A stretch of DNA of 64,000 nt, from positions 3,007,024-3,071,023 of the forward strand of contig OY761558.1 of assembly GCA_963664725.1 (NCBI GenBank), read 5' to 3'. The translations under genes and the position numbers were made by a program. This stretch comes from Dehalococcoidia bacterium. Its GTDB lineage: Bacteria > Chloroflexota > Dehalococcoidia > Lucifugimonadales > UBA3495. Positions 11,091 to 34,282 of the stretch are shown here, piece by piece. Position 1 is the first letter of the stretch. Each line of letters begins with the position of its first letter. The notes beneath the pieces are model-generated. The model was not told the origin of the DNA, ran no database searches, and was given only the letters and a program-made list of their open reading frames with translations.

Positions 11091-11206
11091 CCAGGGCGCG
11101 GGAGCGTCACGCGGCGTCGAACCGCAACGGCGGTTGTCCGTCGGGGAGGGGGGTGAGTTGAATGGTACGGCGCCCCCCTCTCTCCGTGCTGGCGGCTCCT
11201 GGTGCG

Positions 11207-11263
11207 GCACGGATAGGCACGGATAGGCACGGATAGGTACGGATAGGTACGGATAGGGCACGG
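11207..11263. repeat. Tandem repeat, 5 full copies plus one partial copy of the 10-bp unit GCACGGATAG
   Basis: GCACGGATAG x3, then GTACGGATAG x2, then GGCACGG. The array sits between convergent genes and abuts the stop codon of the minus-strand gene at 11264. Confidence 0.9.
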
Positions 11264-11917
11264 CTAAAGGGCGGACGCAGCGTCTGCCCTTGGCTGCCAG
11301 GGCTGCCACTTCACGGAAATCTCCAGCTCGCCGCCCAGGGTGCGGGCCGCCTCGCCGCGCGACACCCAGGAACCCCCGCTACAGCGTCGTTCACCTGACC
11401 AGGACTCATGGCTGCTCCATCCATCCCCTCCAGGTTGGCGGCGCATGGCTTCCCGAAACCGCCCGGCCACCACGTCATCCAACAGTTCCGTGAACCTCAC
11501 GAACTCATCCTCCGGCTGCTCGCCGCAGGCGTCGCAGTGACAGGAGGGGAAGCCGTCGGTGAACCAGCGGCCGGCACGGACCTCAAGGCCGGGGGAGGCG
11601 GTGAAGGCGATGGTGATGGGCGCGCCGGTGTCCCGGAGCGGCGTCAGCCTAATCGTTGGCCTGCCCAGCGGGGCGCGTTCCAGCCGGTCGTCCATTCCCT
11701 CCCCTTCGTCCCGGACCACCTCGTACTCCCTTTGCAGCTGCGCCGCGGCCTCCAGGGCCCAGTCGTGCAGCGGGAGGAAGCGCTCCGAGTCGGTGAAGCG
11801 CGAGTAGGCGTCGTCCAGCGGTTCCTCTCCCCCGGCGCCGCCGGTGAGGGCCGCGTAGCTGAACCAGCCCTCGCTCCGCTCTCCTGAATGGTCCCGTTCC
11901 ATCCATCGCGATTCCAC
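11264..11917 (-). CDS. Hypothetical protein with a CHCDACG motif (resembles an actinobacterial DUF family from memory)
   Basis: Coding-like composition, with the motif FPSCHCDACGEQPEDEF. GTG 11917 lies 7 nt after GGAGG. The track start at 11986 is a TTG without an RBS. Confidence 0.6.
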   Translation of the reverse strand: MESRWMERDHSGERSEGWFSYAALTGGAGGEEPLDDAYSRFTDSERFLPLHDWALEAAAQLQREYEVVRDEGEGMDDRLERAPLGRPTIRLTPLRDTGAPITIAFTASPGLEVRAGRWFTDGFPSCHCDACGEQPEDEFVRFTELLDDVVAGRFREAMRRQPGGDGWSSHESWSGERRCSGGSWVSRGEAARTLGGELEISVKWQPWQPRADAASAL

Positions 11918-14933: not shown

Positions 14934-17900
14934 ATGAGAAAATTAATCAATCCGATTCTTAGCTCGGCCGTGGTAATGGCCCTGGCTCTGGCCGCCGTCT
15001 TTGGCGCAATGAGCCTGGCTAATCCCGCCTACGCCGCAACGCCTTCTGGCCTAACGGCAACGGGTGCCGACAATTCGGTAGTTCTGAAGTTCCGGGATCA
15101 GACAGGCATCAACGCTGACAACTGGGAGGTTCAGCACAGAGAAGATGAGGTTGGTGTAGCTTATTCTGACTGGGCAGATGCTGATGAGGCTCCCTATGCG
15201 GTGACGGCAGAACCTATCACCGGCACGGAGCCAGTAACATCGTCCAGCATGGTAACTGTTACCGTGAGTGGTCTGGCAAATGAATCGGAATACTGCTTTA
15301 GGGTTCGTGAGCAGGCCACAGACGGTAGCCCCAGCGGCGCCGCAGGTCCGGTCTGTGCCGTCCCGAACGAACCGCCGGACATCACTGCTTACAGTGAATT
15401 TACGGTGGAGCCGGGCGATGATGGTGGCTCCCTGGACGTTGAATGGGAAGCGGCTGAAAGCAAACAGGATGCGTGGCAGTATCGGGTTGATGTTGATGCC
15501 GATTATGACAGCTCAACTGATGCCAAGATGGGCAATTGGAGAATGGTGCCGGGCGTCACGAACGACGACGAAGGCGAATTTACAATCTCCAATTTGGAGT
15601 CATTGCCAACCACGGTAATGATTAGGCCGGTGGCCCTATACGATACCGGAAATATTACCGGTTTCGAAGGCGGTGGCACCGACACCGCTAACCCCGTCGT
15701 CGCAGTCCCGGTCCCCGCCAAGCCCACGGTTACGGCAAAGGCGGGCAATGGAATGGTTACTCTCAGTTGGAAGCCAGCCTACATGGACAGTGGCATAAAG
15801 GGCTGGGAGTACAGGCACGATACGACTGCGGACTTTACCGATGACGGCGAAGGCTGGACTTCAGTCCCTGCATTGAGTAGTGACGGTACGGAAATAGCTT
15901 CTGGAAATTCTGGCTTTACCGATGCTTGGAAGGCCATGCGTATGGTGGAAGTTCCGGATTTGGACAACGATACCGAATATACCTTCGTGGTGCGGGCTGT
16001 GTCAGAAGGACCTGCAATTGGAACCGCTGACACTAGCGAGGCTGATGACGAGGGCGGCGACGCCTCAGACCAGGAAATGGCGACGCCGGTTGAGCCGACA
16101 CAGTCCACCTTGAAGGAAGGCGGCATACCCAACCCGCCCATGCTCGGCATCGGGGATGCAGAAGTCAAAGATCTGAGCATGTATTTCAACCAGGGCGCAG
16201 GCTCTGGAGCTATTGAGCGCTACGACGTAATCGTAGCTGGCACGGACAACGTTGCAGTAACGGGCACCAGGGCCGCAATGGATGGTACAAGGTACACCGA
16301 AACTGGCGTTATCACCGTTACCGGTCTCCGGGAGGGCATTGCGGTGGTTACCGTGATCGCCGTTGCCGAAGACAGCGATAATTTTGACGATGTTTCTGCG
16401 TCCTTCACGGTTACCGTCGGTGACGTTGCAGAGGCGGTCAACACCGCCGCCGCTCGGAGCGGCTTCATAACGGACCGGACCCTGACTGTAGGAGCCAGTC
16501 AGACGCTGGACGTAAGCAACTATTTCACTGACGGCGAAGGGAACGGCCAGATCACCAACTACACCTTTATGTCCGACGACGCAGCGGTAACGGTCAACGC
16601 CGAGTCTGCTGTTGGACGGCTGGACATCACTGCCGCCGCCGTGGGTGAAGCGACCATAACCGTCTATGCCGTCGACGGGAACACCGCCGATAACCCCATG
16701 CAGACCTTCAACGTCACGGTGGAGGCAACTCCGGTTGACCCCGACGAAGGCTCCACTGCTGCCAGCGTATCGGGGACGGGCATTCCTACCCAGAGCGTAA
16801 CTATTGGCACGGCCACGGTAGTTGATGAAGCCACAGTCATGGCCGCATTCACTGCAGGTACCGGTACCGGTATGATCGCCAGCTACTCCGTGAGCAGCAC
16901 CGGCGGCTCAAGCCTGATTGCCCAGTACGTTACGGGTCATGGCGTTCTGCTGAATGGCTACAACGCAGGGGGCGCGCTGGTAACGGTAACCGCCCACGAC
17001 GGCCATGGCGCTGCCGACCCCTCGGTAACGTTCCTGGTCAATATCGTGGAGCCGGACGCTGTTGTAGTGGACGCTCCGTACACTCCCCGGACTCCCATGG
17101 GTTCCATGGTGGATCCGATGAGCGACGCGTACACCTTCACCGCTTCCAGCGATGAGCCGGGTGACGGCGCTCGCTACGACATCAAGATCGCCGTAATGGG
17201 TGCGATCGACACCCTGAACGACGAGCTGGAAATCAAGCTGGAAGACTTCGGCTTCCCCTCCAGCGTGTCGCCCAGCGACATCGGTATCACCGTTAACGAA
17301 GAGGACGGCGCCGGACAGGACCGCCGGTTCAGCCCGGACACGGTGACGGCGGGCAGCGACAAGCTGACCATCACCCTGGGCGACATGCTGACCCGCGACG
17401 ATGACCGCGAGGACTTTGAGATTAGCGCGGGGAGCAACATTGACATCGTAATCCGCCAGAGCGCGGGGATAACCAACCCGACCGAGGCCAAGGGTGACGA
17501 CTACGGTCCGAAGGTAACCATTGGTACCGAGGTCATCGACGGCTTCGAAAACAACGCCGATTATCCCATGATGCAGCTGCGCGTCCCCCACGTGGTGAAG
17601 CTCAGTGAAGAGGACGGCGGAGTCGGCGACATTCTTACGGTCGAGGGCCTCGGCTTCAAGAACGGCACGACCATCCACTTCTTCGTGGACAAGGACGAGG
17701 ACATGTTCCTGGATCCTGACGAAGACGTATTATGCTCGGATCCCATCGTTGGCGGTGACGACGTGGGCAGTTGCGAGTTCACCGTCACCACCCCGACCTT
17801 TAGCGGCGGCAGGAACGTCGTCAACGCGGTGGACGGTCGCGACAACTACGACATCGACCCGGACGGCGACCAGGAGTTCGTGTTGAAGCCTTCGCTGACG

Positions 17901-19292
17901 GCCACGCCTGAAGGCGGCAGTCCCGGCGAACTGATCCTGATTCAGCTCTCAACCTTCCCGCAGGGAGCGGTGACCAGGGTTACCATTGGCGGCGTGGACC
18001 TGGATAAGAATGCCTTCTCCGGTTCCGTGAATTCCCAGGGCAGCGGCAGCTTCTCGATTACCGTACCCAACTGGGCCAAGGCCGGCCAGCAGCAACTCAA
18101 GGTTTGGGCCGGTGGCGAGAGCGCCGACACCAACATCGTCATCAGTGGTCCTGCCATCCAGGTGACGCCTGGGTCGGTCCTGGCTAACCAGCGCATCAGT
18201 CTGGTGGGAACGGGCTTCAGCAGCAACGCCTCCATCGCCAGGGTTGGCGCGGGGCTTAGGCAGGTATCCAAGATTTCCATCAGCGGCGAGGACATCGCCT
18301 GGGCCCGCATAAACGGCGGTGAGCCGGTGGACGTTGACAGCGGCGGAAACTGGTCCGCCTCCGTTGACCTGCCCTTCACCGACGCCACCATCGGTTCTGG
18401 TGACCGCATTGTAAGGGTAACCGACTCAGGCGGTCGCACCGGATCGGTGGATGTAACCATCCCGGAGCGCACGATAACGATCACCCCGGACGCGGGTCGC
18501 GTGGGCACCCTGGCCGTGGTGCGCGGTGAGAACTTCCCCAGCAAGAACGACGAAGGATCCAGCTTCAATATTGAGATCGTCTACGACGCCGGCAACGACA
18601 AGACCACCACGGTCTCGGCGGTACCCGACGCCAGCGGACGGTTCGAAGCACAGATAAGGATTCCCAGCACGGCGGCCATCCCGTCCTCCAACCAGATCAC
18701 GGTGACCTTCGAAGACGACGATGACCGCGCAGTACCCACCTCGGTCACCCACGAGGTGCCGGAAGCTGAAATACAGCTTTCTGCCAGCAGCGGTGGCCCC
18801 GGTACGCAGCTGACCATCAACGGCATAGGGTTCAAGGCTTTCGTACCGGTCAACGTGGTGAAGATCGGAACCGTGGACATCACCCCCGCGCCGAAGCCAA
18901 CTACCGATGGCAACGGAATGGTGTCCTTCAGCGTGATTATTCCCGGCCTGGACGTGGGCATCCAGACCCTTGAGATGGAAGTGGGTCGCACCACGGCCAG
19001 CATCGGTTTCACGGTGACGGAGTCCGGCATCAACCCCGGCGACATAGTCGAGATTGCTGCGGGTCTGGAGGAACTGGGCGACAACATCGTCAGCGCCTGG
19101 CACTTCAACAACGACTCCAAGGTCTGGTCCTTCTACGACCCGACCCTGGAAGAGGGCAACACCCTGACCCACATGATCAGCGGCGAGACCTATCTCATCC
19201 GGGTCAAGTCGACCGTGGAGGTCATCCTGAACCACGACACCAGGAGCCTGACCTGCGTGGGCGACAACTGCTGGAACCAGATAGTCTGGTAA
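14934..19292 (+). CDS. Giant secreted surface protein with FN3-, Big/Ig- and IPT/TIG-like repeats
   Basis: 1452 aa. The signal peptide is MRKLINPILSSAVVMALALAAVFGAMSLANPAYA. The body has repeated ~90-100-aa beta-rich modules such as ...TVTVTGLREGIAVVTVIA... and ...GEATITVYAVDG.... The C-terminal part repeats GxxxxVxGxGF (IPT-like). It is acidic and Thr/Val/Gly-rich. Confidence 0.85.
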   Translation: MRKLINPILSSAVVMALALAAVFGAMSLANPAYAATPSGLTATGADNSVVLKFRDQTGINADNWEVQHREDEVGVAYSDWADADEAPYAVTAEPITGTEPVTSSSMVTVTVSGLANESEYCFRVREQATDGSPSGAAGPVCAVPNEPPDITAYSEFTVEPGDDGGSLDVEWEAAESKQDAWQYRVDVDADYDSSTDAKMGNWRMVPGVTNDDEGEFTISNLESLPTTVMIRPVALYDTGNITGFEGGGTDTANPVVAVPVPAKPTVTAKAGNGMVTLSWKPAYMDSGIKGWEYRHDTTADFTDDGEGWTSVPALSSDGTEIASGNSGFTDAWKAMRMVEVPDLDNDTEYTFVVRAVSEGPAIGTADTSEADDEGGDASDQEMATPVEPTQSTLKEGGIPNPPMLGIGDAEVKDLSMYFNQGAGSGAIERYDVIVAGTDNVAVTGTRAAMDGTRYTETGVITVTGLREGIAVVTVIAVAEDSDNFDDVSASFTVTVGDVAEAVNTAAARSGFITDRTLTVGASQTLDVSNYFTDGEGNGQITNYTFMSDDAAVTVNAESAVGRLDITAAAVGEATITVYAVDGNTADNPMQTFNVTVEATPVDPDEGSTAASVSGTGIPTQSVTIGTATVVDEATVMAAFTAGTGTGMIASYSVSSTGGSSLIAQYVTGHGVLLNGYNAGGALVTVTAHDGHGAADPSVTFLVNIVEPDAVVVDAPYTPRTPMGSMVDPMSDAYTFTASSDEPGDGARYDIKIAVMGAIDTLNDELEIKLEDFGFPSSVSPSDIGITVNEEDGAGQDRRFSPDTVTAGSDKLTITLGDMLTRDDDREDFEISAGSNIDIVIRQSAGITNPTEAKGDDYGPKVTIGTEVIDGFENNADYPMMQLRVPHVVKLSEEDGGVGDILTVEGLGFKNGTTIHFFVDKDEDMFLDPDEDVLCSDPIVGGDDVGSCEFTVTTPTFSGGRNVVNAVDGRDNYDIDPDGDQEFVLKPSLTATPEGGSPGELILIQLSTFPQGAVTRVTIGGVDLDKNAFSGSVNSQGSGSFSITVPNWAKAGQQQLKVWAGGESADTNIVISGPAIQVTPGSVLANQRISLVGTGFSSNASIARVGAGLRQVSKISISGEDIAWARINGGEPVDVDSGGNWSASVDLPFTDATIGSGDRIVRVTDSGGRTGSVDVTIPERTITITPDAGRVGTLAVVRGENFPSKNDEGSSFNIEIVYDAGNDKTTTVSAVPDASGRFEAQIRIPSTAAIPSSNQITVTFEDDDDRAVPTSVTHEVPEAEIQLSASSGGPGTQLTINGIGFKAFVPVNVVKIGTVDITPAPKPTTDGNGMVSFSVIIPGLDVGIQTLEMEVGRTTASIGFTVTESGINPGDIVEIAAGLEELGDNIVSAWHFNNDSKVWSFYDPTLEEGNTLTHMISGETYLIRVKSTVEVILNHDTRSLTCVGDNCWNQIVW

Positions 19293-19367
19293 GTCAAGGC
19301 CAGGAAGTAGTTTCTTAGGGGCGGGCAGCCGTCCGCCCCTAACCCCCTAGTTTACAAGGAGGAATCA

Positions 19368-20105
19368 ATGGCAAAAGTCAGTAGAATCCTGGCCCTGCTA
19401 GCGATAGTGGCGATGCTGTCTGCGCTGCCCTTGACGGCATTTGCGCAGCAGGACGTTCCCCACGTACTGCTTGGCACGGCCATGTTGAACGGCGCAACGC
19501 CGCCAGTTGACACTGAAGTCGTCGCCATGGAGGGCAACACCAAGCTCGGCTCGACCATGACCATGGCCGGCGGCAAGTTCTCACTCCAGGTGATGCGGCC
19601 TCCCGGCGGTGGTGCAGTGACCTTCATGGTTGCTGGCGTAAATGCCAGCGAGAGGCTTACCAGTTGGGAGTTCGGCAAGATTCAGCCCGACTTCAACATC
19701 AGCGCCCAGGCTTCCGGCACCGTTGGCCGCGTCGGACCTCCGGGCCCCGCAGGTCCCCCAGGCGCCGCTGGCGCCGCTGGCCCCGCCGGTCCTGCCGGCC
19801 CCCGCGGCGCTGCTGGCGCTGACGGCGCCCAGGGTCCCGCCGGCGCCGATGGTCCTGCCGGCCCCGCCGGCGCTGATGGCGCTCGCGGCCCCGTAGGCCC
19901 CCAGGGCGACCCCGGCGCGCCCGGTGTTGCGGGCCCCGCTGGCGCTGATGGCGCAGCTGGTCCCCAGGGCCCGGCTGGCCCCGCAGGCCCCGCTGGTTCA
20001 AATGGGCAGGACGCTTCCGGAACCATTGGCATAGTCGCCATCGTTATTGCAATTGTGGCGGCGATCATCGCCATAGCCATGCCCTTCGTGATGCCCAGGC
20101 GGTAG
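19368..20105 (+). CDS. Collagen-like triple-helix repeat protein with signal peptide and C-terminal TM anchor
   Basis: AAGGAGG RBS and signal peptide [26 protein letters not shown]. About 30 uninterrupted G-X-Y triplets are present ([25 protein letters not shown]...). The C-terminus [26 protein letters not shown] is a TM anchor. Confidence 0.85.
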
Positions 20106-20130
20106 AGCGGAGGAACGGGTAAACAGAGTA

Positions 20131-20169
20131 AGGCCCCTTCGCCGGATTGGTGGAGGGGCCTCTTCTTTG
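20131..20169 (+). terminator. Rho-independent terminator after the collagen-like gene
   Basis: AGGCCCCT...AGGGGCCT stem followed by CTTCTTTG. Confidence 0.7.
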
Positions 20170-20289
20170 AAAAGGAAGGGGATACAGTAGATAATGGTCT
20201 GAATACAATTGAGGGCCGCACCAGCGACTCCCCAGTCAGCTGCTGCCCTCTCCAACCCAGAATCCCCACCTCGTTTAAGGAGCAGGACA

Positions 20290-20466
20290 ATGGATATATG
20301 GGAAAATGCAAAACCCGGAGATAAGGACCTGTCAAATTGGGTATTACTTCTTGAGGCAGTAAGCGCCTACAATAAGGCGATGGAGGACGAGTCCATCCGC
20401 CAGGAGATGGCTACCAACGAACAGAGGGCAAACCGCCGGTCTGTGGATCCGGGCTATCACCGGTAA
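20290..20466 (+). CDS. 58-aa hypothetical helical protein
   Basis: ATG at 20290 lies 7 nt after AAGGAG: MDIWENAKPGDKDLSNWVLLLEAVSAYNKAMEDESIRQEMATNEQRANRR... The track ORF start at 20209 is less likely. Confidence 0.5.
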   Translation: MDIWENAKPGDKDLSNWVLLLEAVSAYNKAMEDESIRQEMATNEQRANRRSVDPGYHR

Positions 20467-20492
20467 CATCATCCGGCGTTTCCTGCTATAAT
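20463..20492 (+). promoter_or_regulatory. Candidate sigma70-type promoter (GTAACA - 18 nt - TATAAT) firing into the GG-phased repeat leader
   Basis: A perfect TATAAT lies at 20487..20492 and a 4/6 match to the -35 box at 20463..20468. The predicted start near 20500 is just before repeat unit 1 (20503). Confidence 0.4.
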
Positions 20493-20502
20493 CTAAAATC
20501 CC

Positions 20503-20946
20503 AGGCGGGGTGGGGTACGGTCGGGCATGGAGGACCAAGGCCAGGTAAGGCAAGGTTTAAATCAACATTCAGGCGAACATTTACTAGGCGGGGCGATGCG
20601 CGGTATGGCTGGGGGCGACAAGGTCAGGCAAGGCAGGGACTCCTAGAAAGGCACTATTACGGGTACCTTCATACTCAAGGCGGGGCGAGGTCAGGTTTGG
20701 TTGGGGGAGACAAGGTCTGGTTAGGCAGGGTTTTTTGGAAAACATCCATTCAGCTAGGCGGGGCGAGGTACTGCGAGGCTGGGGGAGTTAAGGCAAGGTG
20801 TGGCAAGGAGAGGAATTTAGGAAATAAACTTTTGACAAGGCGGGGTGAGGTAAGGCCCGGCATGGAAGCACAAGGTACGGCAGGGCAAGGTTTTACATTA
20901 ACATTCCAGCCGGGCTGGGGGAGTTAAGGCGAGGCGAGGTAAGGAC
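20503..20946 (+). repeat. Five full copies plus one partial copy of a 75-92-nt unit. Each unit is a 53-nt core of eleven 5-nt-phased NGGNN pentamers plus an A/T-rich spacer.
   Basis: Cores start at 20503, 20586, 20678, 20756 and 20838, with a partial core from 20912. They align without gaps: AGGCG GGGYG AGGTA NGGYN NGGYW KGGRR NNNCA AGGYN NGGYN NGGCA RGG. The last unit supplies the SD (AGGTAAGGAC) of gene 20951. Confidence 0.85.
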
Positions 20947-20950
20947 TTTT

Positions 20951-21553
20951 ATGATCTACGAAGTAACCATCAGGGGAATACGACCGCTACTTATGCACTC
21001 GGGCGAAGGAGTTAACCCGGATCATCCGGCAAATATCGAGAAGGATGAAATCCTACGCAAAAGGACGACGAGCCGCACGGAGTCTGAGACCGAGCGCCTG
21101 CACGAGCTTGAGTGCAGGGTGTCCTTGTGGTTGACGGAGGATGGGCGCCCAACCATACCATCTATGGCAATAAGGGCCTGCCTGGAAGTCGCATCAAGAA
21201 GGCTTCGCCAGGGGCCACAAGTCAGGGAGGGTCTGAGTGTACTTCCCGAGACCACCTTTGAATATGATGAAGAAAAGTACGGCACCACCCTGGATGAAAT
21301 TGTGCAGAATGCCCAATTTCGTACCGGTGTCGTGGTCCAGCGCCAGAGGATTCTCCGGACCCGGGCCCGCTTCGATCTCCCTTGGTCATGTACCTTCCAG
21401 GCCGACTGCGACGATGCTGTGGTGGACCAGCGCCAGCTCGAATCTTGGCTGGAGATCGCCGGCAGACGCATTGGCCTTGGGGACTGGAGGCCGGAGAAGA
21501 GCGGTGATTACGGTCGGTTTGAGTTTACGAAGCTGGAAGGTATCGAGGACTAA
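20951..21553 (+). CDS. 200-aa protein with RAMP-like sequence features (hypothetical)
   Basis: The ATG follows GAGGTAAGGA. There is an N-terminal strand plus PLLMHSGEG. TIPSMAIRACLEVASRRL recalls the IPGSS(I/L)KGxLR helix of Cas7/Csm3-type RAMPs. The C-terminal IGLGDWRPEKSGDYGRFEF recalls the glycine-rich loop plus final strand. This is pattern-level resemblance only. Confidence 0.7.
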   Translation: MIYEVTIRGIRPLLMHSGEGVNPDHPANIEKDEILRKRTTSRTESETERLHELECRVSLWLTEDGRPTIPSMAIRACLEVASRRLRQGPQVREGLSVLPETTFEYDEEKYGTTLDEIVQNAQFRTGVVVQRQRILRTRARFDLPWSCTFQADCDDAVVDQRQLESWLEIAGRRIGLGDWRPEKSGDYGRFEFTKLEGIED

Positions 21554-21567
21554 GTGAGGAGAAGGCC

Positions 21568-22047
21568 ATGGCTGTTTGGATCATTCTAGGCGGCAATGGC
21601 CCGGGTAATGCGGAGAGGGAGTTCTTAGCGACTGGGCCAATAGGAATAGGGTTCTACATAGAGGGCGACATCAGAGGGCTCAGCCGAGAGAGAGTGCGCC
21701 TTAGAACCCAGGCCGGATATTTGCGGTACTTGCGAGACGAAGGAATTGACGCGCGTGTATGGCGGCTTCAAGGGACCGTTACATGGTTCCTACACCAGGT
21801 GCTTAACTTCAGGGACACAGTCAGAATTGGCGACACCATAATTATGCCCAGGAAGGCATCGGGCGGACGCCGCATTGCTCATGACACCGTAGCAGGTAGA
21901 TACAGATTTACCCCTAGGGCCAGGTATCCACACCGCCGCCGGATAAACTGGATAGACCAAGACCTGCGACCACACGAGATCGCGACCCTGTACCCGTTTT
22001 ATGAGCCGCAAAGCGACAATCGAACCGTAATAAGAATTGAGCGATAA
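21568..22047 (+). CDS. 159-aa protein resembling the small N-terminal PUA/EVE-like sensor module found on McrB-type defence ATPases (hypothetical)
   Basis: GAGGAGAAGG RBS, 14 nt after the upstream stop. The pattern is VWIILGG...EREFLATGPIGIGF...D...LSRE, then IGDTIIMPR......IAHDTVAGRYRF.....YPHRRRINWI. The fold assignment is a guess. Confidence 0.65.
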   Translation: MAVWIILGGNGPGNAEREFLATGPIGIGFYIEGDIRGLSRERVRLRTQAGYLRYLRDEGIDARVWRLQGTVTWFLHQVLNFRDTVRIGDTIIMPRKASGGRRIAHDTVAGRYRFTPRARYPHRRRINWIDQDLRPHEIATLYPFYEPQSDNRTVIRIER

Positions 22048-22081
22048 ATGCCGGCTGTTGTGGCTTGAAAACGCCGGCAGG

Positions 22082-22438
22082 CTATACTCCTCTCCTTGAT
22101 TTCCTCTTTGTTGTAGTCCTTGCAGGTACGTAGTGCCGTTGCCTTCTTCGCCTTATAGCAGGACCGCCAACCCCTTCCCCGCGCGCTGGCGGCGGCATTT
22201 GCCGGTCACTGTAGCAAATTTTGCAAAGCTCGATGTCATACCCGTGTTTGTCGGCCAGGTCATAAGCGACCTGTTCTGCCCGTTCTTTGGTCAGGAATGG
22301 TTCCCGCCAATACCCACTCTTGGAGCCGAGTCCCTGGGGCCGATGCTGCCAGTTCTCTGTCGGCGCATGAATGATGATGGCCGTTGAGGGGGATTTGCGG
22401 ACCCGTATATGATAGCCGATTTTAATCTCTTCGGTCAT
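22082..22438 (-). CDS. 118-aa hypothetical protein with a basic tail
   Basis: ATG at 22438 (MTEEIKIGYHIRVRK...) follows GGGAGA. It is convergent with 21568..22047. A GCCGGC...GCCGGC hairpin lies between them. Confidence 0.5.
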   Translation of the reverse strand: MTEEIKIGYHIRVRKSPSTAIIIHAPTENWQHRPQGLGSKSGYWREPFLTKERAEQVAYDLADKHGYDIELCKICYSDRQMPPPARGEGVGGPAIRRRRQRHYVPARTTTKRKSRRGV

Positions 22439-22728
22439 AGCCTGAGTCTCCCTCTGCCCCGTCAAGGCGGCAACTGCCGGTGCGGAGGCGGGTAGCTGGC
22501 AACTGGCGCTTTGTTCCGGCTCTTGTATGGCTCCTTCGCTTCGGTAGATTGTTTCCGTTTCTGTTCAGCCAGGACATATTCCTCCGCTGCTGTCCTGAGT
22601 GATTCAGGCGCGGTCTTAGGTTAGGTCCAGGCTTCCGCTTGACGGGTTCAACCGTGATGTTTTTGGGTTCAGCAACTACCCCGCCCATGCGGGCCATGCC
22701 CTCCCAGCTATCGCCCCAGGGCACCTGT

Positions 22729-24430
22729 TTAGCCTCAATCCACCGAAGAGATGAGTCTTGCGGGGTGGTGAAGGGGTAAGAAAGTGCTCCTTTGCATCTG
22801 GGATAATGGTTTTCGAGAGAGAAAACCGACCAGAAACAAGGAGCACCCAAGAGATGCTACCACTTGAGCACCCCGATCGCATTCAAATCGCCTTCGACGA
22901 CACCCGCCTGGTCAACAATGCTGGGCTGCTCTTTCCGGCCACCCTGGCCCTGCACCTCGGCCTTTCCCAACTGGTACAGGAGCACCTGGACCTGGGAGAT
23001 GCGCCGGGTCGGGCCAACACAGGAGACAAGATGCTGACCCTGGTGGCCTCCGCGCTGGCTGGCGGCGGCTGCCTCGACGACGCCGATGCGCTGCGTTCCG
23101 GCAGAACCGCTGCGGTGCTGGGTTGCACCGTGATGGCCCCTTCCACCCTGGGTACCTTCCTGCGCAGCTTCCGGTGGGGCCATGTCCGCCAGTTGGACCG
23201 GGTGAGCCGGGAACTGCTGGCGCGGGGCTGGGCCGCTGGAGCCGGACCCGGCGACGGGCCGCTGACCATCGACCTGGACTCCACCATCTGCGAGACCTAT
23301 GGCCTGGCCAAGGAGGGAGCCCGCCACCACGGCTACACCGGCCAGCGGGGCTATCACCCGCTGCTCGCCGTGGCCGCTGGCACCGGCGACGTTCTGATGG
23401 CCCGACTGCGCGAAGGACGCTCCAACACCGCTCGGGGCGCCGCCCACTTCCTGCGGGAGACGGTGGGTCGAATGCGTCACGCCGGGGCCAAAGGACAACT
23501 CACCGTGCGGGCCGACAGCGGCTTCTACACTCATGGGGTGGTATCCGTCTGCCGCAAGACAAAGGTGCGCTTCTCCATCACCATCCGCCAACGTGCCAGC
23601 CTGCGCAAACTCATTGAGGCCATACCCGATGATGCCTGGACGCCCATCCCTTATTGGATGGAGGGTGCCGCCGATGTGTCCGAGACCGTTTACACTTCCT
23701 TCAGAAGCAAGCCCGATGCCGCGCCGGTGCGGCTCATCGTCCGCAGGGTCAAGCCCACGCCCTGCTCCCAACTGGTTCTGTTCGCCAACTACAGCTATCA
23801 CGCCTTCATCACCGACCGCGGCGGCAACACGCTGGACCTGGAGGCCGACCACCGCCGCCACGCCGAGATCGAAAACGCCATCCGAGACCTGAAGTACGGT
23901 GCAGGGCTCAACCATCTCCCCTCGGGCCGCTTCGCAGCCAACGCTGCCTGGCTGGCGGTGCAGGTCATGGCACACAACCTGGCCCGCTGGACCACGCGCA
24001 TCGGTCTGGGCGAGCAGATAGTGACCACCAAGACCCTGCGGCGACGCTTCTTCTCCCTGGCCTGACGGCTCACCCGCTCGGCCCGCCGCCTCACTTTGCA
24101 TCTTCCCAGGCGCTGGCCCTGGGAAGCCCAGTTCAGTCGCGCCCTGGCAAGGCTCCGATCCTTACCACTCCCTGCCTGACGCCGCTATCCGCAACCAGCC
24201 CAACGCCTCCAAACTCGCGTCCGCCCGGTCCGCGAGTGCATCTTGTTGCGTCCGATCTCAACTATCACGCGGTTCCCCACGTCCATAGACCGCTCTCGGG
24301 GATCTGCGCGGCTACCGAAAACCCGCTGCCGTGACACATCGGTCCCAATGGAGGCCAGGTTTCTCCCTTGTAGGCTCCCTCATCCCAACTTGCCCAGCCT
24401 TCACGTCTCCCTTCGGTGGATTCGGGCTAA
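22729..24430 (+). mobile_element. IS1380-family insertion sequence (~1.7 kb)
   Basis: The terminal inverted repeats are TTAGCCTCAATCCACCGAAG (22729..22748) and CTTCGGTGGATTCGGGCTAA (24411..24430), matching at 18/20 positions. They enclose one transposase gene. Confidence 0.8.
22854..24179 (+). pseudogene. IS1380-family DDE transposase with an in-frame TGA at 24063..24065
   Basis: MLPLEHPDRIQIAFDDTRLVNNAGLL...DSGFY...HRRHAEIENAIRDLK... is typical of IS1380 transposases. After the TGA the same frame continues RLTRSARRLTLHLPRRWPWEAQFSRALARLRSLPLPA. That is the conserved C-terminus of the family as I remember it. Confidence 0.8.
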
Positions 24431-24781
24431 GGGCAATGCAGAAGCAATTGAACCGGGAAATCACTGAACAGTGGCTACGAAGGATCGGCAGTGGTTGTTG
24501 ACCTGTCTCCTGCGACCCTGGTTAATCGAGAAACGTTGCCCAGGGAACTCAATTGCTGTTGCAGGAAGTGGGGCATTCTTATCTCGGTCACACTCTGTAC
24601 CTAGAGATACTCTGAACAAGGCCCATCGCGGCCTGAATGGCGGCTGACCGATGGGCAAGGGCCGAAATTCACCGTCCCTGACTGGTCCTATTTCTTCCAA
24701 CCTCAGCATTTCGCTCCCTTTTCGGGGCAGTTGGCGGCTTGTCACGAGGTAGAATGCCGGTGAATCTGGCCCCGGGGCCCA

Positions 24782-25760
24782 CTACCCCCTCAGTCTCCTC
24801 AGTTTACCCTCTGCAATCAACAGGTTGCCCAGCCCGAACAGCAGGGCCGTCCGTTCCGTGTTCTTTGCCAGTCCCCGGGCCAGCCCCCGGTAGCGTATTT
24901 TCCAATACCCGAACTGCCGCTTCAACCTCTGGAAGGGGTGTTCCACCTTGGCCTGCTCCGTCCGTGCCTCTTCGCTCTCCGGCTCCAGCTTCCGCCGTTT
25001 CCCAGGCCGCATCGCCACCCGCCATTCCACCGCCAATTCTAGATTCTCCTCTCGCTTGTGAACTCCCTGATACCCAGCATCTCCCCACACCACCGTCTCG
25101 CCCCCGTGCAGCAGATTGTGGGCCTCCGTGACATCGTGAGCGTTGGCCGCCGTGGTGCTCATTCTGTGGACTATTCCGGTCTCAGAGTCCACCCCAATAT
25201 GCGCCTTCATCCCGAAGTGCCACTGGTTCCCCTTCTTGGTCTGGTGCATCTCTGGGTCCCGCTCCTGGTTCCGGTTCTTGGTGGATGACGGCGCCTCGAT
25301 GATGGTGGCGTCCACAATGGTTCCTTCCCTGAGCTTCAGTCCCTGTGACTCCAGGTGGGTTGATCTCCTCCAGGAGACCCTGCCCCAGATGGTGCTGCTC
25401 CAATAGGTGGCGGAAGTGGAGGATGGTGGTCTCGCCGGGCAGCGGGCCGGTGAGCTTCAAGCCCACGAACCGCCGCACCGGATCGGACTCGTAGAGCAGA
25501 TCCTCCATGCCAGGATCACTCAGATTGTAGGAGATCTGGACGCAGTGGACTCGCAGCATAACTGGAAGGGGATAGGGATGGCGGCCCCGACCGGCCTTGG
25601 GATAGAAGGTATGGATGCGGCCTTCCAGCTTCTGCCAGGGAATCAGGCTTTCCATCCGCTCCAGGAACAACTCCCGTCTAGTCTTGCGCTTCTTCCCCCG
25701 TATTCCAAGTCGGAAAAGAGCCTGCCCTCGTGAAGACGAGGGTGGGTTGCTCCATCCCAA
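24782..25760 (-). pseudogene. IS5-family (IS5/ISL2-type) DDE transposase, frameshifted near 25320-25360
   Basis: The N-terminal ORF contains KRKTRRELFLERMESLIPWQ...YPLPVMLRVHCVQISYNLSD. The second frame contains IVDATIIEAPSSTKN...WHFGMKAHIGVD...GDAGYQG...AKVEHPFQRLKRQFGYWKIRYRGL. Confidence 0.8.
25719..25742 (-). repeat. Hairpin mini-insertion copy 1 (in IS5 tnp): CCCTCG-TCTTCA-CGAGGG-CAGGCT on the coding strand
   Basis: Read directly from the sequence. It is 24 nt and in frame, and it adds PSSSRGQA near the N-terminus. Confidence 0.7.
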
Positions 25761-25870
25761 TTCACCTCTCTACTGGTCTGGCCTGCCTCCCCTTACTATG
25801 CCATAATTACGCCAGACTTGTTCAGAGTATCCCTAACATTCTCCAAAACTTGGGAGTGGAGGTGTGCGGA

Positions 25871-26326
25871 ATGACTACTACCCTGGTGGAACTGATTGAA
25901 CGCGCCCCGTGGCGGGAAGCGGTAACCTATCGGGAGACGTGGCCCCATGAGTACGTACTGTCGGAGAGGGACGGGCAGAAAGAATTGCTGGCGGCGGTAG
26001 TGGAGCGTTTCAAAGCAGGCGAGGGGGTGGCCTGCCACTTCTTTAGCATGTACAACACCTACCTGTTCGTCGGCGACCACAAGTATTGGTTGATGGTGAA
26101 CTACAACGAGGTGGATGCCCTTGGAACAGCAGGCGACTACGTGCTGAACCGGGCCCGATTGTACCGGGACCGACGGGATTTTGTGATACAACCCGGGGAT
26201 ACGGGGATGCGGGAGGATTACAGGGGGAACGGGCGCGGGAGTGGTAGGTTACCTTGTACGCTAAGAGCGTATGGAGAAGCATACGAGCCATTTACCGAAC
26301 CCTGCCCGAATCCGGAAAATTCATAA
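25871..26326 (+). CDS. Conserved hypothetical protein (W..A.TY..TWPHEYV family)
   Basis: ATG at 25871 follows GGAGGTG: MTTTLVELIERAPWREAVTYRETWPHEYVLSE...YKYWLM... I recognise the pattern but know no function for it. Confidence 0.6.
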   Translation: MTTTLVELIERAPWREAVTYRETWPHEYVLSERDGQKELLAAVVERFKAGEGVACHFFSMYNTYLFVGDHKYWLMVNYNEVDALGTAGDYVLNRARLYRDRRDFVIQPGDTGMREDYRGNGRGSGRLPCTLRAYGEAYEPFTEPCPNPENS

Positions 26327-26339
26327 AGGAGAGAAGCAC

Positions 26340-27311
26340 ATGTCGTCTCGAGATTTGGGAACTCTGCAGCCAGTGCCGTTAAGGAACATATGGGGCCACG
26401 AAGCTCATAACTTCACTCCATGGTTAGCTGAGAATATCTCCCAATTAGCAGAGGTTATAAACATAAAGCTGGAAGCCAGCCAAAGAGAACATTGGAAGTC
26501 CGGAGAGGGTTTTGTCGATATTTTGGCCAGGGAGACCGAGTCCGACCGAACCGTCGTCATAGAGAACCAGCTTGAGATTTCCGACAACGACCATTTTCTA
26601 CGGTTGATGAGCTACGCTGCAAGTCGGAAAGCGAGCACCCTGATCTGGATAGCTTCGGAGTTTACGGAATCGCACCGTAGTATATTGTCTTGGTTGAGTG
26701 GGAGCGGAGTGGAAATTTATGCTGTTAAGGTAAGTGCCTATCGGATCGAAGATGCTTACGCTCCTTGGTTTGAAATAATTGTCAGCCCAGAAGGCGCCAC
26801 AGAAATTGCGGATGCACGCCCATACGGTGACAGTCTTTATGCGCGTTTCTACCGTCCGCTGACTGCCCTGTTGAGAATTGAAGGACTCTACGCCATTGGT
26901 GGGCGCCAAGGCGGATGGACAGGGAGGTATCGCAGGTTCCGGTCCAAGGCGCTACTGGAGACAGCCGGGATAACCTATTACACTGTCCTGGGACGAAAAA
27001 CCGAGAATTGTTCTGCAGGGCTCATGTTCCTCGGGGACCAACAACAAACCGACTTTCACGATGCCATCTTCGAATCTAAGAGTGACTTAGAAAAGGATAT
27101 GGTAGGTTTTACGGTGCAATGGGATAGAGACCCAGTACGATCCTACGTGCACTATGTGAACGTTAACAAAGTTGGTATTACCGAAGAAGGAGAAAATGCC
27201 TTGGAAGCAACAAGACATTGGATGAGGGACTCATTGCTGCGTCTTCGACAAGTATTTGAGCCTAAACTGGAAGAAATAGTCGAGTCTAGGGAGAACCCGC
27301 TTTCGGATTGA
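26340..27311 (+). CDS. PD-(D/E)XK-like nuclease N-domain plus DUF4268-like C-domain protein (paralog A)
   Basis: AAAGGAGAG RBS. Motifs: FVDILARE...VVIENQLEISDNDHFLRLMSYAA...LIWIASEFTESHRSILSWL. It is clearly homologous to 52819..53769. Confidence 0.75.
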   Translation: MSSRDLGTLQPVPLRNIWGHEAHNFTPWLAENISQLAEVINIKLEASQREHWKSGEGFVDILARETESDRTVVIENQLEISDNDHFLRLMSYAASRKASTLIWIASEFTESHRSILSWLSGSGVEIYAVKVSAYRIEDAYAPWFEIIVSPEGATEIADARPYGDSLYARFYRPLTALLRIEGLYAIGGRQGGWTGRYRRFRSKALLETAGITYYTVLGRKTENCSAGLMFLGDQQQTDFHDAIFESKSDLEKDMVGFTVQWDRDPVRSYVHYVNVNKVGITEEGENALEATRHWMRDSLLRLRQVFEPKLEEIVESRENPLSD

Positions 27312-27334
27312 ACAAGGAAGGGACTGAAACATCC

Positions 27335-27487
27335 CTAATACTACAGTCGCACATCGCATTCTTCAGGTTCAGTTGGTTCCCAGCGAATCCCGTTCGGACA
27401 GTACTTCCCGCTGGTGAGCAAAGCTGAATTCACCTGCCTTGATACACCGGAAAAGGTGAGCCCAAAATTGTGCGACTGTAGTATTAG
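27335..27487. mobile_element. 153-bp MITE-like element with 19-bp terminal inverted repeats CTAATACTACAGTCGCACA
   Basis: The left TIR is at 27335..27353 and its exact reverse complement is at 27469..27487. The internal 27361..27484 recurs inverted at 29531..29654. Confidence 0.8.
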
Positions 27488-27508
27488 CGCTTCAGCTATA
27501 CTTTACCC

Positions 27509-29398
27509 ATGGGCCTGCTTTCCAAATCCGTTACCATCTCTATGGCGTGTGTGGCCGGGGTACTTGGCGTCCTCTTCCTGTTCTCGAATGTGGTGGTTCC
27601 CCTGCTGCCTGAACAGGAGCAAAAGACCGAAACTCCCTGGAATCCTGCGGCAACCCCGGTTGCCGTTTCTTCTCAACCCACACTATTGCCTGCGCAGGCC
27701 TCCAGGCCAACGGCAACGTTACCGACTTTGCCGCCGTCTACGCAGTCCCGCGAGTCCATAGGCTTTTATTCCCTGCGAAATGCCCAGGAACTTGAGGAAG
27801 TTTCACCCGCGGCCGTCCGAGTAATCCGGGAGCTTCCATGGATTGCAGATGGTATCAGCCGGGAGGAACAATACGGAGCCGAAGCCTTGACCCATCTGTC
27901 AGCCACGCTGCCGGCAACTTTTGGGTACTTGATCGAAAAACCCTGGGTATCAACCGGAAGCCATCAAGAATTGGGCAAGGCCTTACTCGCCTTGGAAAGT
28001 ATTGGCAATGATGATCCCATTCTTGTTCAAAAGATAGTTTCTATGCCCTTTCTGGAGGAACTGGACTCGCAAGATGTGATTGCCCTGGATTCTCTGGCCT
28101 ATCTGGCCTATTCGGACTTCATCGCTTTCAGGAACATTATCAATCACCAAAGGCTTGGGGACGGTATCGATAGTGAAGAGGCAAAGATAGTGGCCGTTCT
28201 CGGGGAAGTGAACGAAATAAATCCGGACTTGACTGACATTCTGCTCGACCCCCAGCAGACTACTATCGAAGAAAGGCCAATTGGCTTGCCGTTGGCTGGG
28301 AACATCACCTTGGCTATCATCCGTACGAGGCCGGGCGCTATTCGCAGCATGGACTTGCTGGAAAGTGCCGTAAGGGGGGCAGAGTCCTTCATTGGCGAAC
28401 CATTCCCCAGCCGTTACATAGCCCTCCTGTTTGAGGAAGCCGTCCCAGGCAGTTTTGCCGGGAGCAACAACGGGGCACACATGACCATATTGCCACAATA
28501 CGACGTCGATGATCAAAGCTACGAGTCTGCCCTGGCAAACCGGGCCATAGCCCACGAGGTAGCGCATTACTATTGGCACGGAGGAGAACCCTGGCTCGAC
28601 GAGGGAGCGGCAGAATTCACCGCGACCTACGTAGAGTACCTAGCCGAGGGCAGGCCGCTTGAACCGGTCAATTACCCGTGCAGTCCCGCCAGCACAATTC
28701 GCTACCTTGAGAACAAGGGCTTTGCGGAGTCGGACCCCGCTTTTGCGTGCAACTACGCCGTTGGCGAAAGGTTCTTCCTGGACCTGTACGGAAACCTGGG
28801 AGAGGAGCAATTTCGGCGGGGTTTCCGTGACCTCTACCGGTTCGTGAAAGAAACTGATCCCTTTGGGAATAATGCAACCGGAATGGAGGAGGTCCGTACG
28901 GCCTTCGGTGACTTTCAGTCAAAAGGACCAGCCAATTCCTTTAACCCTGTGTCGCATGCGGCCGAGAGGTGGTACGAAGGGAAATTGCCAGACAGGGAGA
29001 ACCACTATGACCCTCGTCCGGCGGTGGCCGAATTGCCCACTATAAACGGTTGGATTAACCGCGCTTACGTTTCAATGACTGAAGGAGGAACGTCGGTCGA
29101 GGAAGTATCGGCATCGCATCCAGGAGCCTGGCTGTGGCTGACCTTACAGTATTCGCACGGCTATGCGGGACCTCCCCAGGAGTTGAGCTTCGAAATAGTG
29201 GAATACTACGAAGACGGCTTTCCCTACCGCCGCGATACCTTGACCATCCAGGTAGACCGCAGGTATTCCGGTGGTGTGCAGTGGATTTCCGTGGGGCCGG
29301 GGCCAGGCCAGGAATGGGCAGACGGCCGCCACTGGGTCTACGTGTACCACGAGGGCCGTAAGGTGGCCCAGGTGGAGTTTGAGGTAACGCCCCGATGA
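27509..29398 (+). CDS. Membrane-anchored gluzincin (M1-like) zinc metalloprotease
   Basis: N-terminal TM segment MACVAGVLGVLFLFSNVVVPLL, then a Pro/Thr linker. HEVAHYYWH is followed 18 aa later by WLDEGAAEF, which gives the HExxH+E signature. Confidence 0.75.
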   Translation: MGLLSKSVTISMACVAGVLGVLFLFSNVVVPLLPEQEQKTETPWNPAATPVAVSSQPTLLPAQASRPTATLPTLPPSTQSRESIGFYSLRNAQELEEVSPAAVRVIRELPWIADGISREEQYGAEALTHLSATLPATFGYLIEKPWVSTGSHQELGKALLALESIGNDDPILVQKIVSMPFLEELDSQDVIALDSLAYLAYSDFIAFRNIINHQRLGDGIDSEEAKIVAVLGEVNEINPDLTDILLDPQQTTIEERPIGLPLAGNITLAIIRTRPGAIRSMDLLESAVRGAESFIGEPFPSRYIALLFEEAVPGSFAGSNNGAHMTILPQYDVDDQSYESALANRAIAHEVAHYYWHGGEPWLDEGAAEFTATYVEYLAEGRPLEPVNYPCSPASTIRYLENKGFAESDPAFACNYAVGERFFLDLYGNLGEEQFRRGFRDLYRFVKETDPFGNNATGMEEVRTAFGDFQSKGPANSFNPVSHAAERWYEGKLPDRENHYDPRPAVAELPTINGWINRAYVSMTEGGTSVEEVSASHPGAWLWLTLQYSHGYAGPPQELSFEIVEYYEDGFPYRRDTLTIQVDRRYSGGVQWISVGPGPGQEWADGRHWVYVYHEGRKVAQVEFEVTPR

Positions 29399-29534
29399 CT
29401 TTTGACCGATGCGCCTGTGACCAAACAACCGGTACTGCGCGAGAAAGTTCAGGCCCTGGACAAGGCCGACGTAAAGACAGTAGCCGGTTGAAAGCTCCCG
29501 GGTAACAGATCCTTTAATGGACATCTTAGTACTA

Positions 29535-29654
29535 CAGTCGCACAATTTTGGGCTCACCTTTTCCGGTGTATCAAGGCAGGTGAATTCAGCTTTGCTCACC
29601 AGCGGGAAGTACTGTCCGAACGGGATTCGCTGGGAACCAACTGAACCTGAAGAA
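29535..29654. mobile_element. Second, inverted and one-end-truncated copy of the MITE
   Basis: It starts CTTAGTACTACAGTCGCACAATTTTGGG. 29531..29654 is the exact reverse complement of 27361..27484. Similarity ends after GAACCTGAAGAA, so the second TIR is missing. Confidence 0.8.
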
Positions 29655-29710
29655 AATGAAAAGGCCCTGCGGCTCGCTGGCCTACGCCGCCTGAATGTAC
29701 AAAGTCCAGC

Positions 29711-30109
29711 TTAGTAGTAGATGTACTTACTCCTGCCGTACTTGATGTACCGGCGCCTGCCGTTCCCCTTGACGACTCCTAACAATCCGATGACGGCCAT
29801 TATTATCCCCATGACCAACATCACCATTCCGCCAAACCCGATGAGCCAGTGCACGAACCACAAGTGAAGGACGAACTTCATCACGATCCCCATCACAGAG
29901 ACGGCAACGCCCGCAATCAGCAACGCCACTCCAATGATCTTGCCCACCAGGTCTCCAAAGATCACGGACGAGCCGCCGATCACCGCTGCGGCAATTCCAC
30001 CGAAGATGAACAGGTTCCCCGTCCGGTCGATGAGGGACTGCATAAGGCCCGACATGATAGATAGGCCCATCAGGGCTAGTATGACGCCCATCACCATCAA
30101 TCCGAGCAT
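29711..30109 (-). CDS. 132-aa polytopic membrane protein, unknown function
   Basis: GAGGGAG RBS. There are four Gly/Ile/Met-rich hydrophobic helices, and the C-terminus is basic (GNGRRRYIKYGRSKYIYY). Confidence 0.6.
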   Translation of the reverse strand: MLGLMVMGVILALMGLSIMSGLMQSLIDRTGNLFIFGGIAAAVIGGSSVIFGDLVGKIIGVALLIAGVAVSVMGIVMKFVLHLWFVHWLIGFGGMVMLVMGIIMAVIGLLGVVKGNGRRRYIKYGRSKYIYY

Positions 30110-32299: not shown

Positions 32300-32558
32300 T
32301 GTTGCCTCCGCGCCTGCAAGGTGGAGGTGTCGCCGGAGGGAGACGCTAATATCGAACAATCTATGGAACGGGATCGCTCCGCTTGGAGTGTCACCAATGA
32401 TGCAGTCGCAAGTCTCCCAGACCATGCTCTCCAACGGGCAATTAGCACCAATGTCAGCTCGGTCTTGATCCGGACGGCACCCCTTATCATAAGCATACAT
32501 CCTTGGGCGGACTCACCAGTTAGTCGCCTCTGCACGGCCCGGATACGGGCATAACTCT
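32300..32558 (-). ncRNA. Candidate bridge (guide) RNA region in the 5' non-coding end of the IS110 element
   Basis: The call is by position only. IS110-group elements carry their structured guide RNA between the left end and the recombinase start. I did not fold or align the sequence. Confidence 0.3.
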
Positions 32559-34193: not shown

Positions 34194-34282
34194 ACCATCA
34201 CCTCACAACAACACGTTCTATCAACAGATTAGCACTACCAGTCAACCACCCTTGGAACACTCAAAACAAGCTTGACAAGGTA

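Follow-up and report, generated by a model that had tools for sequence, protein, structure and literature searches.

The window analysed here is a stretch of 64,000 nucleotides (64 kb) from contig OY761558.1 of a Dehalococcoidia bacterium. The element under study is an array of tandem repeats on its + strand (20503..20950), immediately 5′ of an open reading frame (ORF) for a 200-aa protein. Five units of 11 pentamers and a 5′-truncated sixth unit make up the array, with GG dinucleotides kept in strict 5-nt phase. We consider it very likely that the locus is a Viral Interference Programmable Repeat (VIPR) array of vrRNAs together with its vipr gene. This assignment is based on the anatomy of the repeats, the identity of the protein, the conservation of its GG-contacting residues, and the near-universal linkage of array and gene in relatives. 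The features of the locus are collected in Table 1.

Table 1. Features of the proposed VIPR locus and its immediate neighbours (positions in the window; NN codes from repeat 1 to repeat 11).
Feature	Position	Strand	NN code	Remarks
Small basic-tailed ORF, 58 aa from ATG 20290	20290..20466	+		Just 5′ of array promoter
Sigma-70-like promoter	20463..20492	+		GTAACA, 18 nt, TG-TATAAT; before array and vipr
vrRNA unit 1 (U1)	20503..20585	+	GG GG AC CG AT GG AA CA AA AA TT	11 GGY/NN repeats at 20504..20558, then A/T-rich tail
vrRNA unit 2 (U2)	20586..20677	+	GG GA GC AT TG GC AA CA AA AG CT	Third repeat degenerate (TGC), then tail
vrRNA unit 3 (U3)	20678..20755	+	GG GA CA TT TG GA AA CT TA AG TT	Repeats, then tail
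vrRNA unit 4 (U4)	20756..20837	+	GG GA AC GA TG GA AA AA GT AA GA	Fourth repeat degenerate (TGC), then tail
vrRNA unit 5 (U5)	20838..20911	+	GG GA AA CC AT AG AA AC AG AA TT	Repeats, then tail
Unit 6, 5′-truncated	20912..20950	+		Repeats 5–11; ends AGGTAAGGACTTTT just 5′ of ATG 20951
vipr gene	20951..21553	+		200-aa Cas7-like RAMP; putative repeat-binding protein
DUF8426 ORF, 159 aa	21568..22047	+		14 nt 3′ of vipr

VIPR systems were described in two bioRxiv preprints by one group in 2026 (April–June), one on their discovery (10.64898/2026.04.26.720920) and one on their structure by cryo-electron microscopy (cryo-EM; 10.64898/2026.04.26.720927), and a literature search returned no VIPR papers beyond these two. 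A system comprises a ~20-kDa ancestral RAMP protein (Vipr) and vrRNAs, which are defined by 9–16 YNNGG repeats in which GGY is constant and NN varies strongly; internal degeneracy of vrRNAs is frequent. VIPR silences transcription, was shown experimentally to be reprogrammable via NN alone, and is directed in nature at competing phages, satellites, and prophages (10.64898/2026.04.26.720920). In the cryo-EM structure from SUSP1, one Vipr protomer is bound per GGYNN repeat in a right-handed helical filament, which buries GGY and displays NN. The NN pair with double-stranded DNA (dsDNA) in a triplex R-loop, one target base being skipped per repeat, and the GG is contacted by H17, R138, D177, W178, and R179 (10.64898/2026.04.26.720927). 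Types I–VII and 664 loci are covered by the preprint. Of the published VIPR loci, 25.5% are chromosomal; a viral or proviral setting is typical and not obligatory. A pseudoknot 3′ tail has been described for one clade only, that of SUSP1.

The Repeat Array

From the starts given in Table 1, the five complete units can be aligned without a gap as 11 pentamers NGGNN. Phased GG is found in 10, 9, 10, 9, and 10 of the 11 pentamers in U1–U5, respectively. Pentamer 7 is without GG in 5/5 units, and the further gaps are pentamer 3 of U2 (ATGCG) and pentamer 4 of U4 (CTGCG). An earlier note, made from this DNA alone, had described five full units of 11 × NGGNN with these starts and one partial unit, the exception at pentamer 7, and a TATAAT in front, and the sequence bears it out in each respect. 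Its remark that several spacers share ACATTC stands in a looser form, as the hexamer itself is present only in the spacers of U1 and U5 and the remaining ones contain the related CATTC/YTTCA.

To judge the phasing, the stretch 20500..20950 was shuffled 2000 times with its dinucleotide composition preserved. Over 11 pentamers, the real sequence has up to 10 phased GG, while no shuffle exceeded 9 (reached in 4/2000), and 0/2000 shuffles had as many windows of 9/11 phased GG or better as the real sequence. Elsewhere in the 64-kb window, 8/11 was reached at one place only, a 10-mer minisatellite at 11206..11263. Shifted by one base, the repeat reads GGY/NN. Over the 56 local pentamers, the frequencies at the first three positions are 0.93 for G, 0.91 for G, and 0.86 for Y, with A at position 3 (GGA) in 0.09 of the repeats, and the two NN positions carry 0.17 and 0.16 bits. 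This local profile matches the published vrRNA definition.

Folding of the RNA strand over the whole array was no better than that of shuffles (z = −1.2), which fits a protein-coated single strand. The Rfam scan of 19000..23000 (E ≤ 10) provided no match for the array and two weak, chance-level, unrelated matches elsewhere. No hammerhead ribozymes were found between the units in the same scan, so the locus is not of the ribozyme-interspersed array type. At a score of at least 30, Tandem Repeats Finder detected nothing with a period of around 80.

Only one promoter was obtained in a consensus scan of 20200..20950. It has 10/12 consensus matches, TG just before the −10 element, and a perfect TATAAT at 20487..20492; the same promoter element (GCTATAATCT / GGTATACT) is present 10 nt before the first unit in two close relatives, loci L004 and L005. 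No terminator-like site was found by the consensus scan between promoter and vipr, and the array and vipr are probably co-transcribed and then processed. Internal promoters for each unit were considered and rejected, as the scan revealed none and the −10-like motifs lie too close to the unit starts. Processing of a single putative transcript is preferred over per-unit promoters.

Clade-Specific Features of the Units

Units in this clade start with (A/T)GGCGGGGYG. At the 3′ end, GGC-RR-GG and the A/T-rich sequence after it are kept here and family-wide, and the tails of 21–39 nt are poorly conserved. Repeat 7 is degenerate in every unit of the window and only 4 nt long in L004. This dip is specific to the clade and not found across the whole family, and it suggests a 6+4 repeat arrangement with a hinge. 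Moreover, the NN of repeats 1, 2, 7, 10, and 11 are nearly constant within the clade, which leaves about six variable dinucleotides per guide. The idea that the constant NN are conserved codons of one common target was rejected, as the five guides would call for codons in between that resemble each other too little.

The number of units differs among close relatives: there is one in L005, one in L002, three in L004, and five plus a remnant in the window. A degenerate third repeat is common to U2, unit 1 of L004, and the unit of L005, and on this account these three are probably orthologues. Among them the GGY backbone is kept and the NN are different. When unit 6 is compared with L004, ~30 nt are gone between CCGGG and CTGGG, and the missing stretch corresponds to the first repeats of the last unit in L004. 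This comparison suggests that unit 6 arose by a ~30-nt deletion which took its first repeats. The last GG repeats of unit 6 appear to overlap the likely Shine-Dalgarno sequence of vipr.

The Vipr Protein

A phmmer search of the PDB with the product of 20951..21553 gave chain 36pp_D, 'SUSP1 Vipr protein' (E = 8.9e-8, 25.7% identity), as a full-length match between query residues 4–190 and chain residues 5–185. The ORF also matches phrog_4652 (PHROG 4652, unknown function) with E = 8.7e-30, and it has no family in Pfam and NCBIfam. Residues H16, R138, D178, W179, and R180 align to the SUSP1 GG contacts H17, R138, D177, W178, and R179. When 35 relatives are aligned, these five residues do not vary, and neither does the motif G175-L-G-D-W-R-P181. 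The residues of the pyrimidine pocket and K33 are without position-by-position conservation.

The AlphaFold2 model (35 relatives) has a pLDDT of 91.1 and a pTM of 0.86. All of the top 50 Foldseek matches in the PDB belong to the Cas7 family (Csm3, type VII Cas7, Csf2), with E values from 2.6e-5, probabilities of 0.99–1.0, and a TM score of ~0.5 to Csm3, type VII, and type IV Cas7; the best are backbone subunits of type III, IV, and VII CRISPR complexes. The ORF is therefore confidently predicted to have a minimal RAMP fold that is Cas7/Csm3-like, and the former description of its product as RAMP-like is correct.

Linkage of Array and Gene in Relatives

Two sets of loci with vipr homologues were analysed. 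The genome set contains 80 loci of 46–90% identity, mostly from metagenome-assembled genomes (MAGs) labelled Dehalococcoidia, SAR202, Caldilineaceae, Binatia, and Acidimicrobiia; the closest relative (90% identical) is from a SAR202 MAG, and the other close ones are mostly Dehalococcoidia. The viral set contains 80 IMG/VR loci of 23–53% identity. A phased array on the same strand was found within ~0.9 kb of the vipr homologue in 76/80 genome loci, and one stands beside the homologue in 73/80 IMG/VR loci, with an opposite-strand array in 3. The distal flanks, used as background, contained 3 arrays per 675 kb of strand-nucleotides. The 2556 pentamers of the 80 genome loci have the same profile as the local ones (G 0.93, G 0.94, Y 0.90; NN 0.12 and 0.01 bits).

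The earlier note had named conservation of the phasing in related genomes, and co-occurrence of arrays with homologues of the two downstream ORFs, among the tests of its proposal. The phasing is conserved, and the co-occurrence holds for the first ORF and fails for the second (see below). The proposal that the tract is a non-coding RNA is supported as well.

The number of repeats per unit in relatives ranges from 7 to 24 or more, and in most of them the array is 3′ of vipr. In the closest relatives, L004, L005, and L002, the last unit ends not more than ~30 nt before the ATG. Pseudomonas phage LESphi2 served as positive control: three such units were found immediately 5′ of its vipr homologue. 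Distant vipr homologues were found in cultured Mycobacterium, Gordonia, and Pseudomonas phages. In Gordonia phage Trine (MH271318.1; L089 2119..2208), a phased GG array lies just 3′ of the vipr homologue (gene 41) and inside the annotated coding sequence of gene 40 ('hypothetical protein'), so that the annotation of gene 40 may wrongly cover a vrRNA. Around the window locus, Pfam scans detected no cas families.

Search for Targets

Target scans were performed by applying the 1-nt-skip rule to the five local guides. The scans for exact matches have low sensitivity, and IMG/VR and the JGI metagenomes, which served as target databases, possibly lack the viromes that matter. In the window and 163 fetched loci, the best target scores were 15–17 of 22, and shuffled guides scored as well. 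Searched in IMG/VR without mismatches, the 18-base patterns gave 0–4 matches per guide, all in contigs of 22–39% GC or in giant-virus MAGs, and their number is about the chance expectation by our own rough estimate. A 20-base pattern of one guide gave a single, unconvincing match in the JGI metagenomes. When skip rules were compared with all guides of the family on 1.2 Mb of fetched loci, the 1-nt skip provided 1 exact and 12 one-mismatch matches, against 0–1 exact and 4–7 one-mismatch matches in the controls. This excess is modest and only suggestive. An excess at a 3-nt skip was dismissed as an artefact of arrays matching homologous arrays.

Some matches of guides from other loci are recorded here in their own right. 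Over ten repeats, a Dehalococcoidia guide (L022 4746..4835) matches the IMG/VR contigs L139 at ~38 (−) and L141 at ~256 (−), with 19/20 and ~18/20 NN, respectively. The skipped bases differ between L139 and L141, a wobble-like signature that is suggestive of a real coding target. A guide of the viral contig L152 is an exact match to the Caldilineaceae locus L064 over 9 repeats. In a group of Acidimicrobiia, the guides match a site between genes of the same locus, at a distance of 1.7 kb (L068 4624..4700 and 6272..6297 (−); also L059, L069, L070, and L071), and guide and site co-vary between genomes, with CA/CA in L068 and TA/TA in L059. This may be a case of self-locus regulatory targeting, which was not reported in the preprint; statistically, it counts as one independent event.

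Proposed Mechanism and Alternatives

Filament assembly, the DNA code with a 1-nt skip, and repression as the output are carried over to the window by analogy from the experiments with SUSP1 and Pseudomonas fulva. On this basis, transcription from the single promoter at 20463..20492 would give five complete vrRNAs, a truncated one, and then the vipr mRNA, each complete vrRNA comprising 11 GGY/NN pentamers and a short A/U-rich tail. Vipr protomers would polymerise on this RNA, one per pentamer, with GGY buried and NN exposed. The exposed NN would pair with dsDNA in the pattern NN-x-NN-x..., one base being skipped per repeat, and the binding would silence transcription of a competing mobile element. 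The 5-nt phase had been interpreted before as the footprint of an oligomeric binding protein encoded just 3′, and homology with the SUSP1 cryo-EM structure (10.64898/2026.04.26.720927) speaks for that interpretation. The function suggested along with it, a sponge, decoy, or autoregulator, is not supported, as by homology the RNA would be a guide whose NN specify a DNA target.

Several observations weigh against the VIPR assignment. The ~12 variable nucleotides per guide are short for unique addressing, and a conserved structured 3′ tail or pseudoknot of the SUSP1-clade type was not seen in the local units. The scans described above yielded no natural target for U1–U5. The locus has no conserved vap gene, and it lies in an island rich in insertion sequences (IS) with restriction and defence genes rather than in a recognisable prophage. 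The last of these makes decay or domestication possible.

Such decay is unlikely in our judgement. A non-functional VIPR remnant in a transposase-rich island would be in keeping with the transposase genes, which begin ~0.7 kb downstream and fill 22.7–43 kb, with a unit 6 cut by deletion, with the degenerate repeats in U2 and U4, and with the failure to find targets for the five guides. Nevertheless, vipr is an uninterrupted ORF in which all residues invariant in the family are present, the −10 element of the promoter is perfect, 9–10 of 11 GG are in phase in the five units, and internal degeneracy is common in vrRNAs (10.64898/2026.04.26.720920).

It is quite unlikely that the array is an autoregulatory leader or a protein sponge, which binds Vipr on its own mRNA and thereby controls translation or titrates the protein. 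The hypervariable NN next to a fixed GGY are what is expected of an information-carrying guide and not of a sponge, the homologous systems are experimentally reprogrammable DNA-targeting guides (10.64898/2026.04.26.720920), and the array of most relatives, being 3′ of vipr, cannot be a leader there. The position in the window is what lends the leader its appeal: the array separates the sole consensus promoter from the vipr ATG and no terminator-like site interrupts this stretch, the truncated last unit runs over the probable Shine-Dalgarno sequence, and L004, L005, and L002 also have their last unit within ~30 nt of the ATG. At most, a secondary autoregulatory role over the Shine-Dalgarno sequence could be assigned to unit 6.

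We see a small chance that the Dehalococcoidia/SAR202-type clade combines both roles in a dual-function array with a bipartite guide geometry. The vipr mRNA may release the guides from its 5′ leader, with unit 6 acting as a Vipr-responsive translational operator, in line with the autoregulation suggested in the earlier note. The guide may be bipartite, with six repeats, a hinge of 4–5 nt, and four repeats, of which, the end dinucleotides being constant, only ~12 nt are programmable. If the bipartite variant were true, two short half-sites might be read, or genes of the own element or the host might be regulated instead of competitors being destroyed.

A protein-independent DNA or RNA element (a G-quadruplex field, iterons, CRISPR- or ToxI-like repeats, or a CsrA/TRAP platform) would be G-rich, periodic, and built of tandem ~80-nt units before a gene, as this array is, yet it is very improbable: the G runs are mostly two long and quadruplexes explain neither the Y after GG nor the free NN, CRISPR or ToxI repeats would be more alike than these units, the array matches no Rfam family at E ≤ 10, the downstream protein is without a Pfam family, contrary to what is expected of ToxN, CsrA, or TRAP, none of which appeared when Pfam was scanned more widely over the window, only a minority of repeats have GGA, the motif of CsrA, and the presence of the array co-varies with vipr over 160 loci. 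Individual candidates of this kind were rejected on similar grounds: a CsrA/RsmA sponge for A after GG in only 9% of repeats, no significant structure, and no Rfam match of CsrB/RsmZ type; TRAP/trp-leader attenuation for the GGY motif and a downstream RAMP protein that has no Pfam family; and a CRISPR array or the ToxI of a type III toxin-antitoxin system for the divergence of the units and a neighbour that is Vipr and not a ToxN- or Cas6-like nuclease.

Neighbouring Genes and Genomic Context

The small ORF upstream of the array promoter has counterparts at the same position in L004 (3540..3727) and L005 (3677..3871) and a weaker one in L002. The basic C-terminus is conserved among them and reads ...RRSVDPGYHR / ...LRSVDPRYKH / ...KRSINPRYRRRG. 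A promoter-like site of its own (20167..20195) is located 3′ of a terminator-like hairpin (20131..20161). The small ORF could encode an accessory protein of the clade.

The N-terminus of the DUF8426 ORF matches the N-terminal domain of the PADLOC candidate PDC-S02 (E = 3e-10). Only 11 homologues are known, all with PF28530/DUF8426, and Pfam and NCBIfam scans of the 159-aa ORF itself returned nothing. A homologue was present in 0 of 83 vipr loci, and three contexts of its homologues contained neither vipr nor arrays; the ORF is therefore not a conserved partner. The earlier note had placed both ORFs in a two-gene cassette, which these results do not uphold, and had called the second product PUA-like, which could not be confirmed with a structure model that is unreliable (pLDDT 42).

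The GC content drops from ~69% to 52–62% at ~14 kb of the window. On the 5′ side of the array, 14934..20105 (+) encodes an fn3 protein of 1452 aa and a collagen-repeat protein of 245 aa with tail-fibre PHROG matches. Both are syntenic in relatives, and they may be phage tail fibres or cell-surface proteins. The collagen-repeat protein of L001, L002, and L004 has a hydrophobic tail, ...AMPFVMP(R/S)R. On the 3′ side, transposase genes start ~0.7 kb from the VIPR locus and fill 22758..43000, with the families DDE_Tnp_1_4, DUF772, DDE_3 (three times), IS110, and DDE_Tnp_1. Genes of defence type follow at 44481..62899, namely those for an AAA_11/AAA_12 helicase of 1731 aa that carries an MTES_1575 nuclease domain, for a Uma2 endonuclease, for type I HsdM/HsdS, and for a Schlafen/AlbA_2 ATPase. 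A Replic_Relax protein is encoded as well. No tRNA was found in the region and no clear prophage core around the locus. The region is a mobile and defence island and not demonstrably a prophage.

Two other elements of the window were observed. The inverted repeat GTCGCACAATTTTGGGCTCACCTTTTCCGGTG, at 27476 (−) and 29537 (+), flanks a 629-aa ORF (27509..29398) without Pfam match, and the pair resembles the termini of an insertion element not yet characterised. The minisatellite at 11206..11263 (+) consists of (GGCACGGATA) × 5.7, and its GG keep the 5-nt phase perfectly. The tract separates an HTH_3 gene from a DUF6226 gene where the GC content is 69%, and a GC-rich hairpin (11268..11292) comes after it. 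It is a simple 10-mer repeat that is not hypervariable, with no vipr nearby. It was considered as an orphan guide and rejected; no (ACnTAn) target of it was found in the window and no copy in any fetched locus.

Significance and Comparison with Known Systems

The main value of the analysis is validation: what is here assigned as a vrRNA array had been picked out from raw sequence, and its in-register binding by the neighbouring RAMP-like protein had been correctly proposed. VIPR biology was already presented in the preprints of April–June 2026, and the local locus adds no new principle. It does add a well-defined VIPR array of five guides in a GC-rich lineage related to MAGs labelled Dehalococcoidia/SAR202, together with evidence from 160 loci that the linkage of array and vipr holds down to ~25% protein identity. 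Furthermore, the clade features, i.e., the hinge repeat, the constant terminal NN, the absence of a structured tail, and the absence of a conserved vap, are of interest for guide processing and target length.

A likeness to TRAP on the Bacillus trp leader had been pointed out earlier, and both do have eleven trinucleotides with 2-nt spacers in an RNA leader which, in the case of Vipr by analogy, would be read in register by a homo-oligomer. The number eleven is a coincidence, as relatives of this VIPR locus have from 7 to >20 repeats and a Vipr filament is not an 11-mer ring. The trinucleotide is GGY here and (G/U)AG in TRAP targets, and the protein would be a RAMP filament and not an 11-mer β-wheel. 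Moreover, the spacers would carry information and the output would be DNA targeting, whereas that of TRAP is attenuation.

With Cas7/Csm3 on the CRISPR RNA of Class 1 CRISPR systems, Vipr shares the fold class and, by analogy, oligomerisation along a guide RNA, with a thumb that breaks the pairing at a fixed period. That period is 5 nt in VIPR (three bases sequestered, two exposed) and 6 nt with one base flipped in Class 1 CRISPR, and the guide information of VIPR is non-contiguous. The repeat-spacer array, Cas6/Cas5 handles, adaptation genes, and effector nuclease of Class 1 CRISPR are all absent here.

The closest comparison is with VIPR type II (Escherichia phage SUSP1 and a Pseudomonas fulva prophage). 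Differences are the protein identity of only ~26% to SUSP1 Vipr, the Dehalococcoidia/SAR202-like host lineage, the short A/U-rich tails with no detectable conserved structure in place of the SUSP1 pseudoknot tail, the fixed degenerate seventh repeat with near-constant first and last NN, and the absence of a conserved vap gene. Common to both are a ~200-aa RAMP protein with a single RNA recognition motif and a G-loop (GDWRP motif), predicted in the case of the window protein, the same GG-contact residues as in SUSP1 Vipr, and vrRNAs of ~11 GGY/NN pentamers. The array is by vipr on the same strand, including the array-upstream layout, which is also that of SUSP1 vrRNA1 and LESphi2, and the locus is likewise minimal, with no cas genes or CRISPR array.

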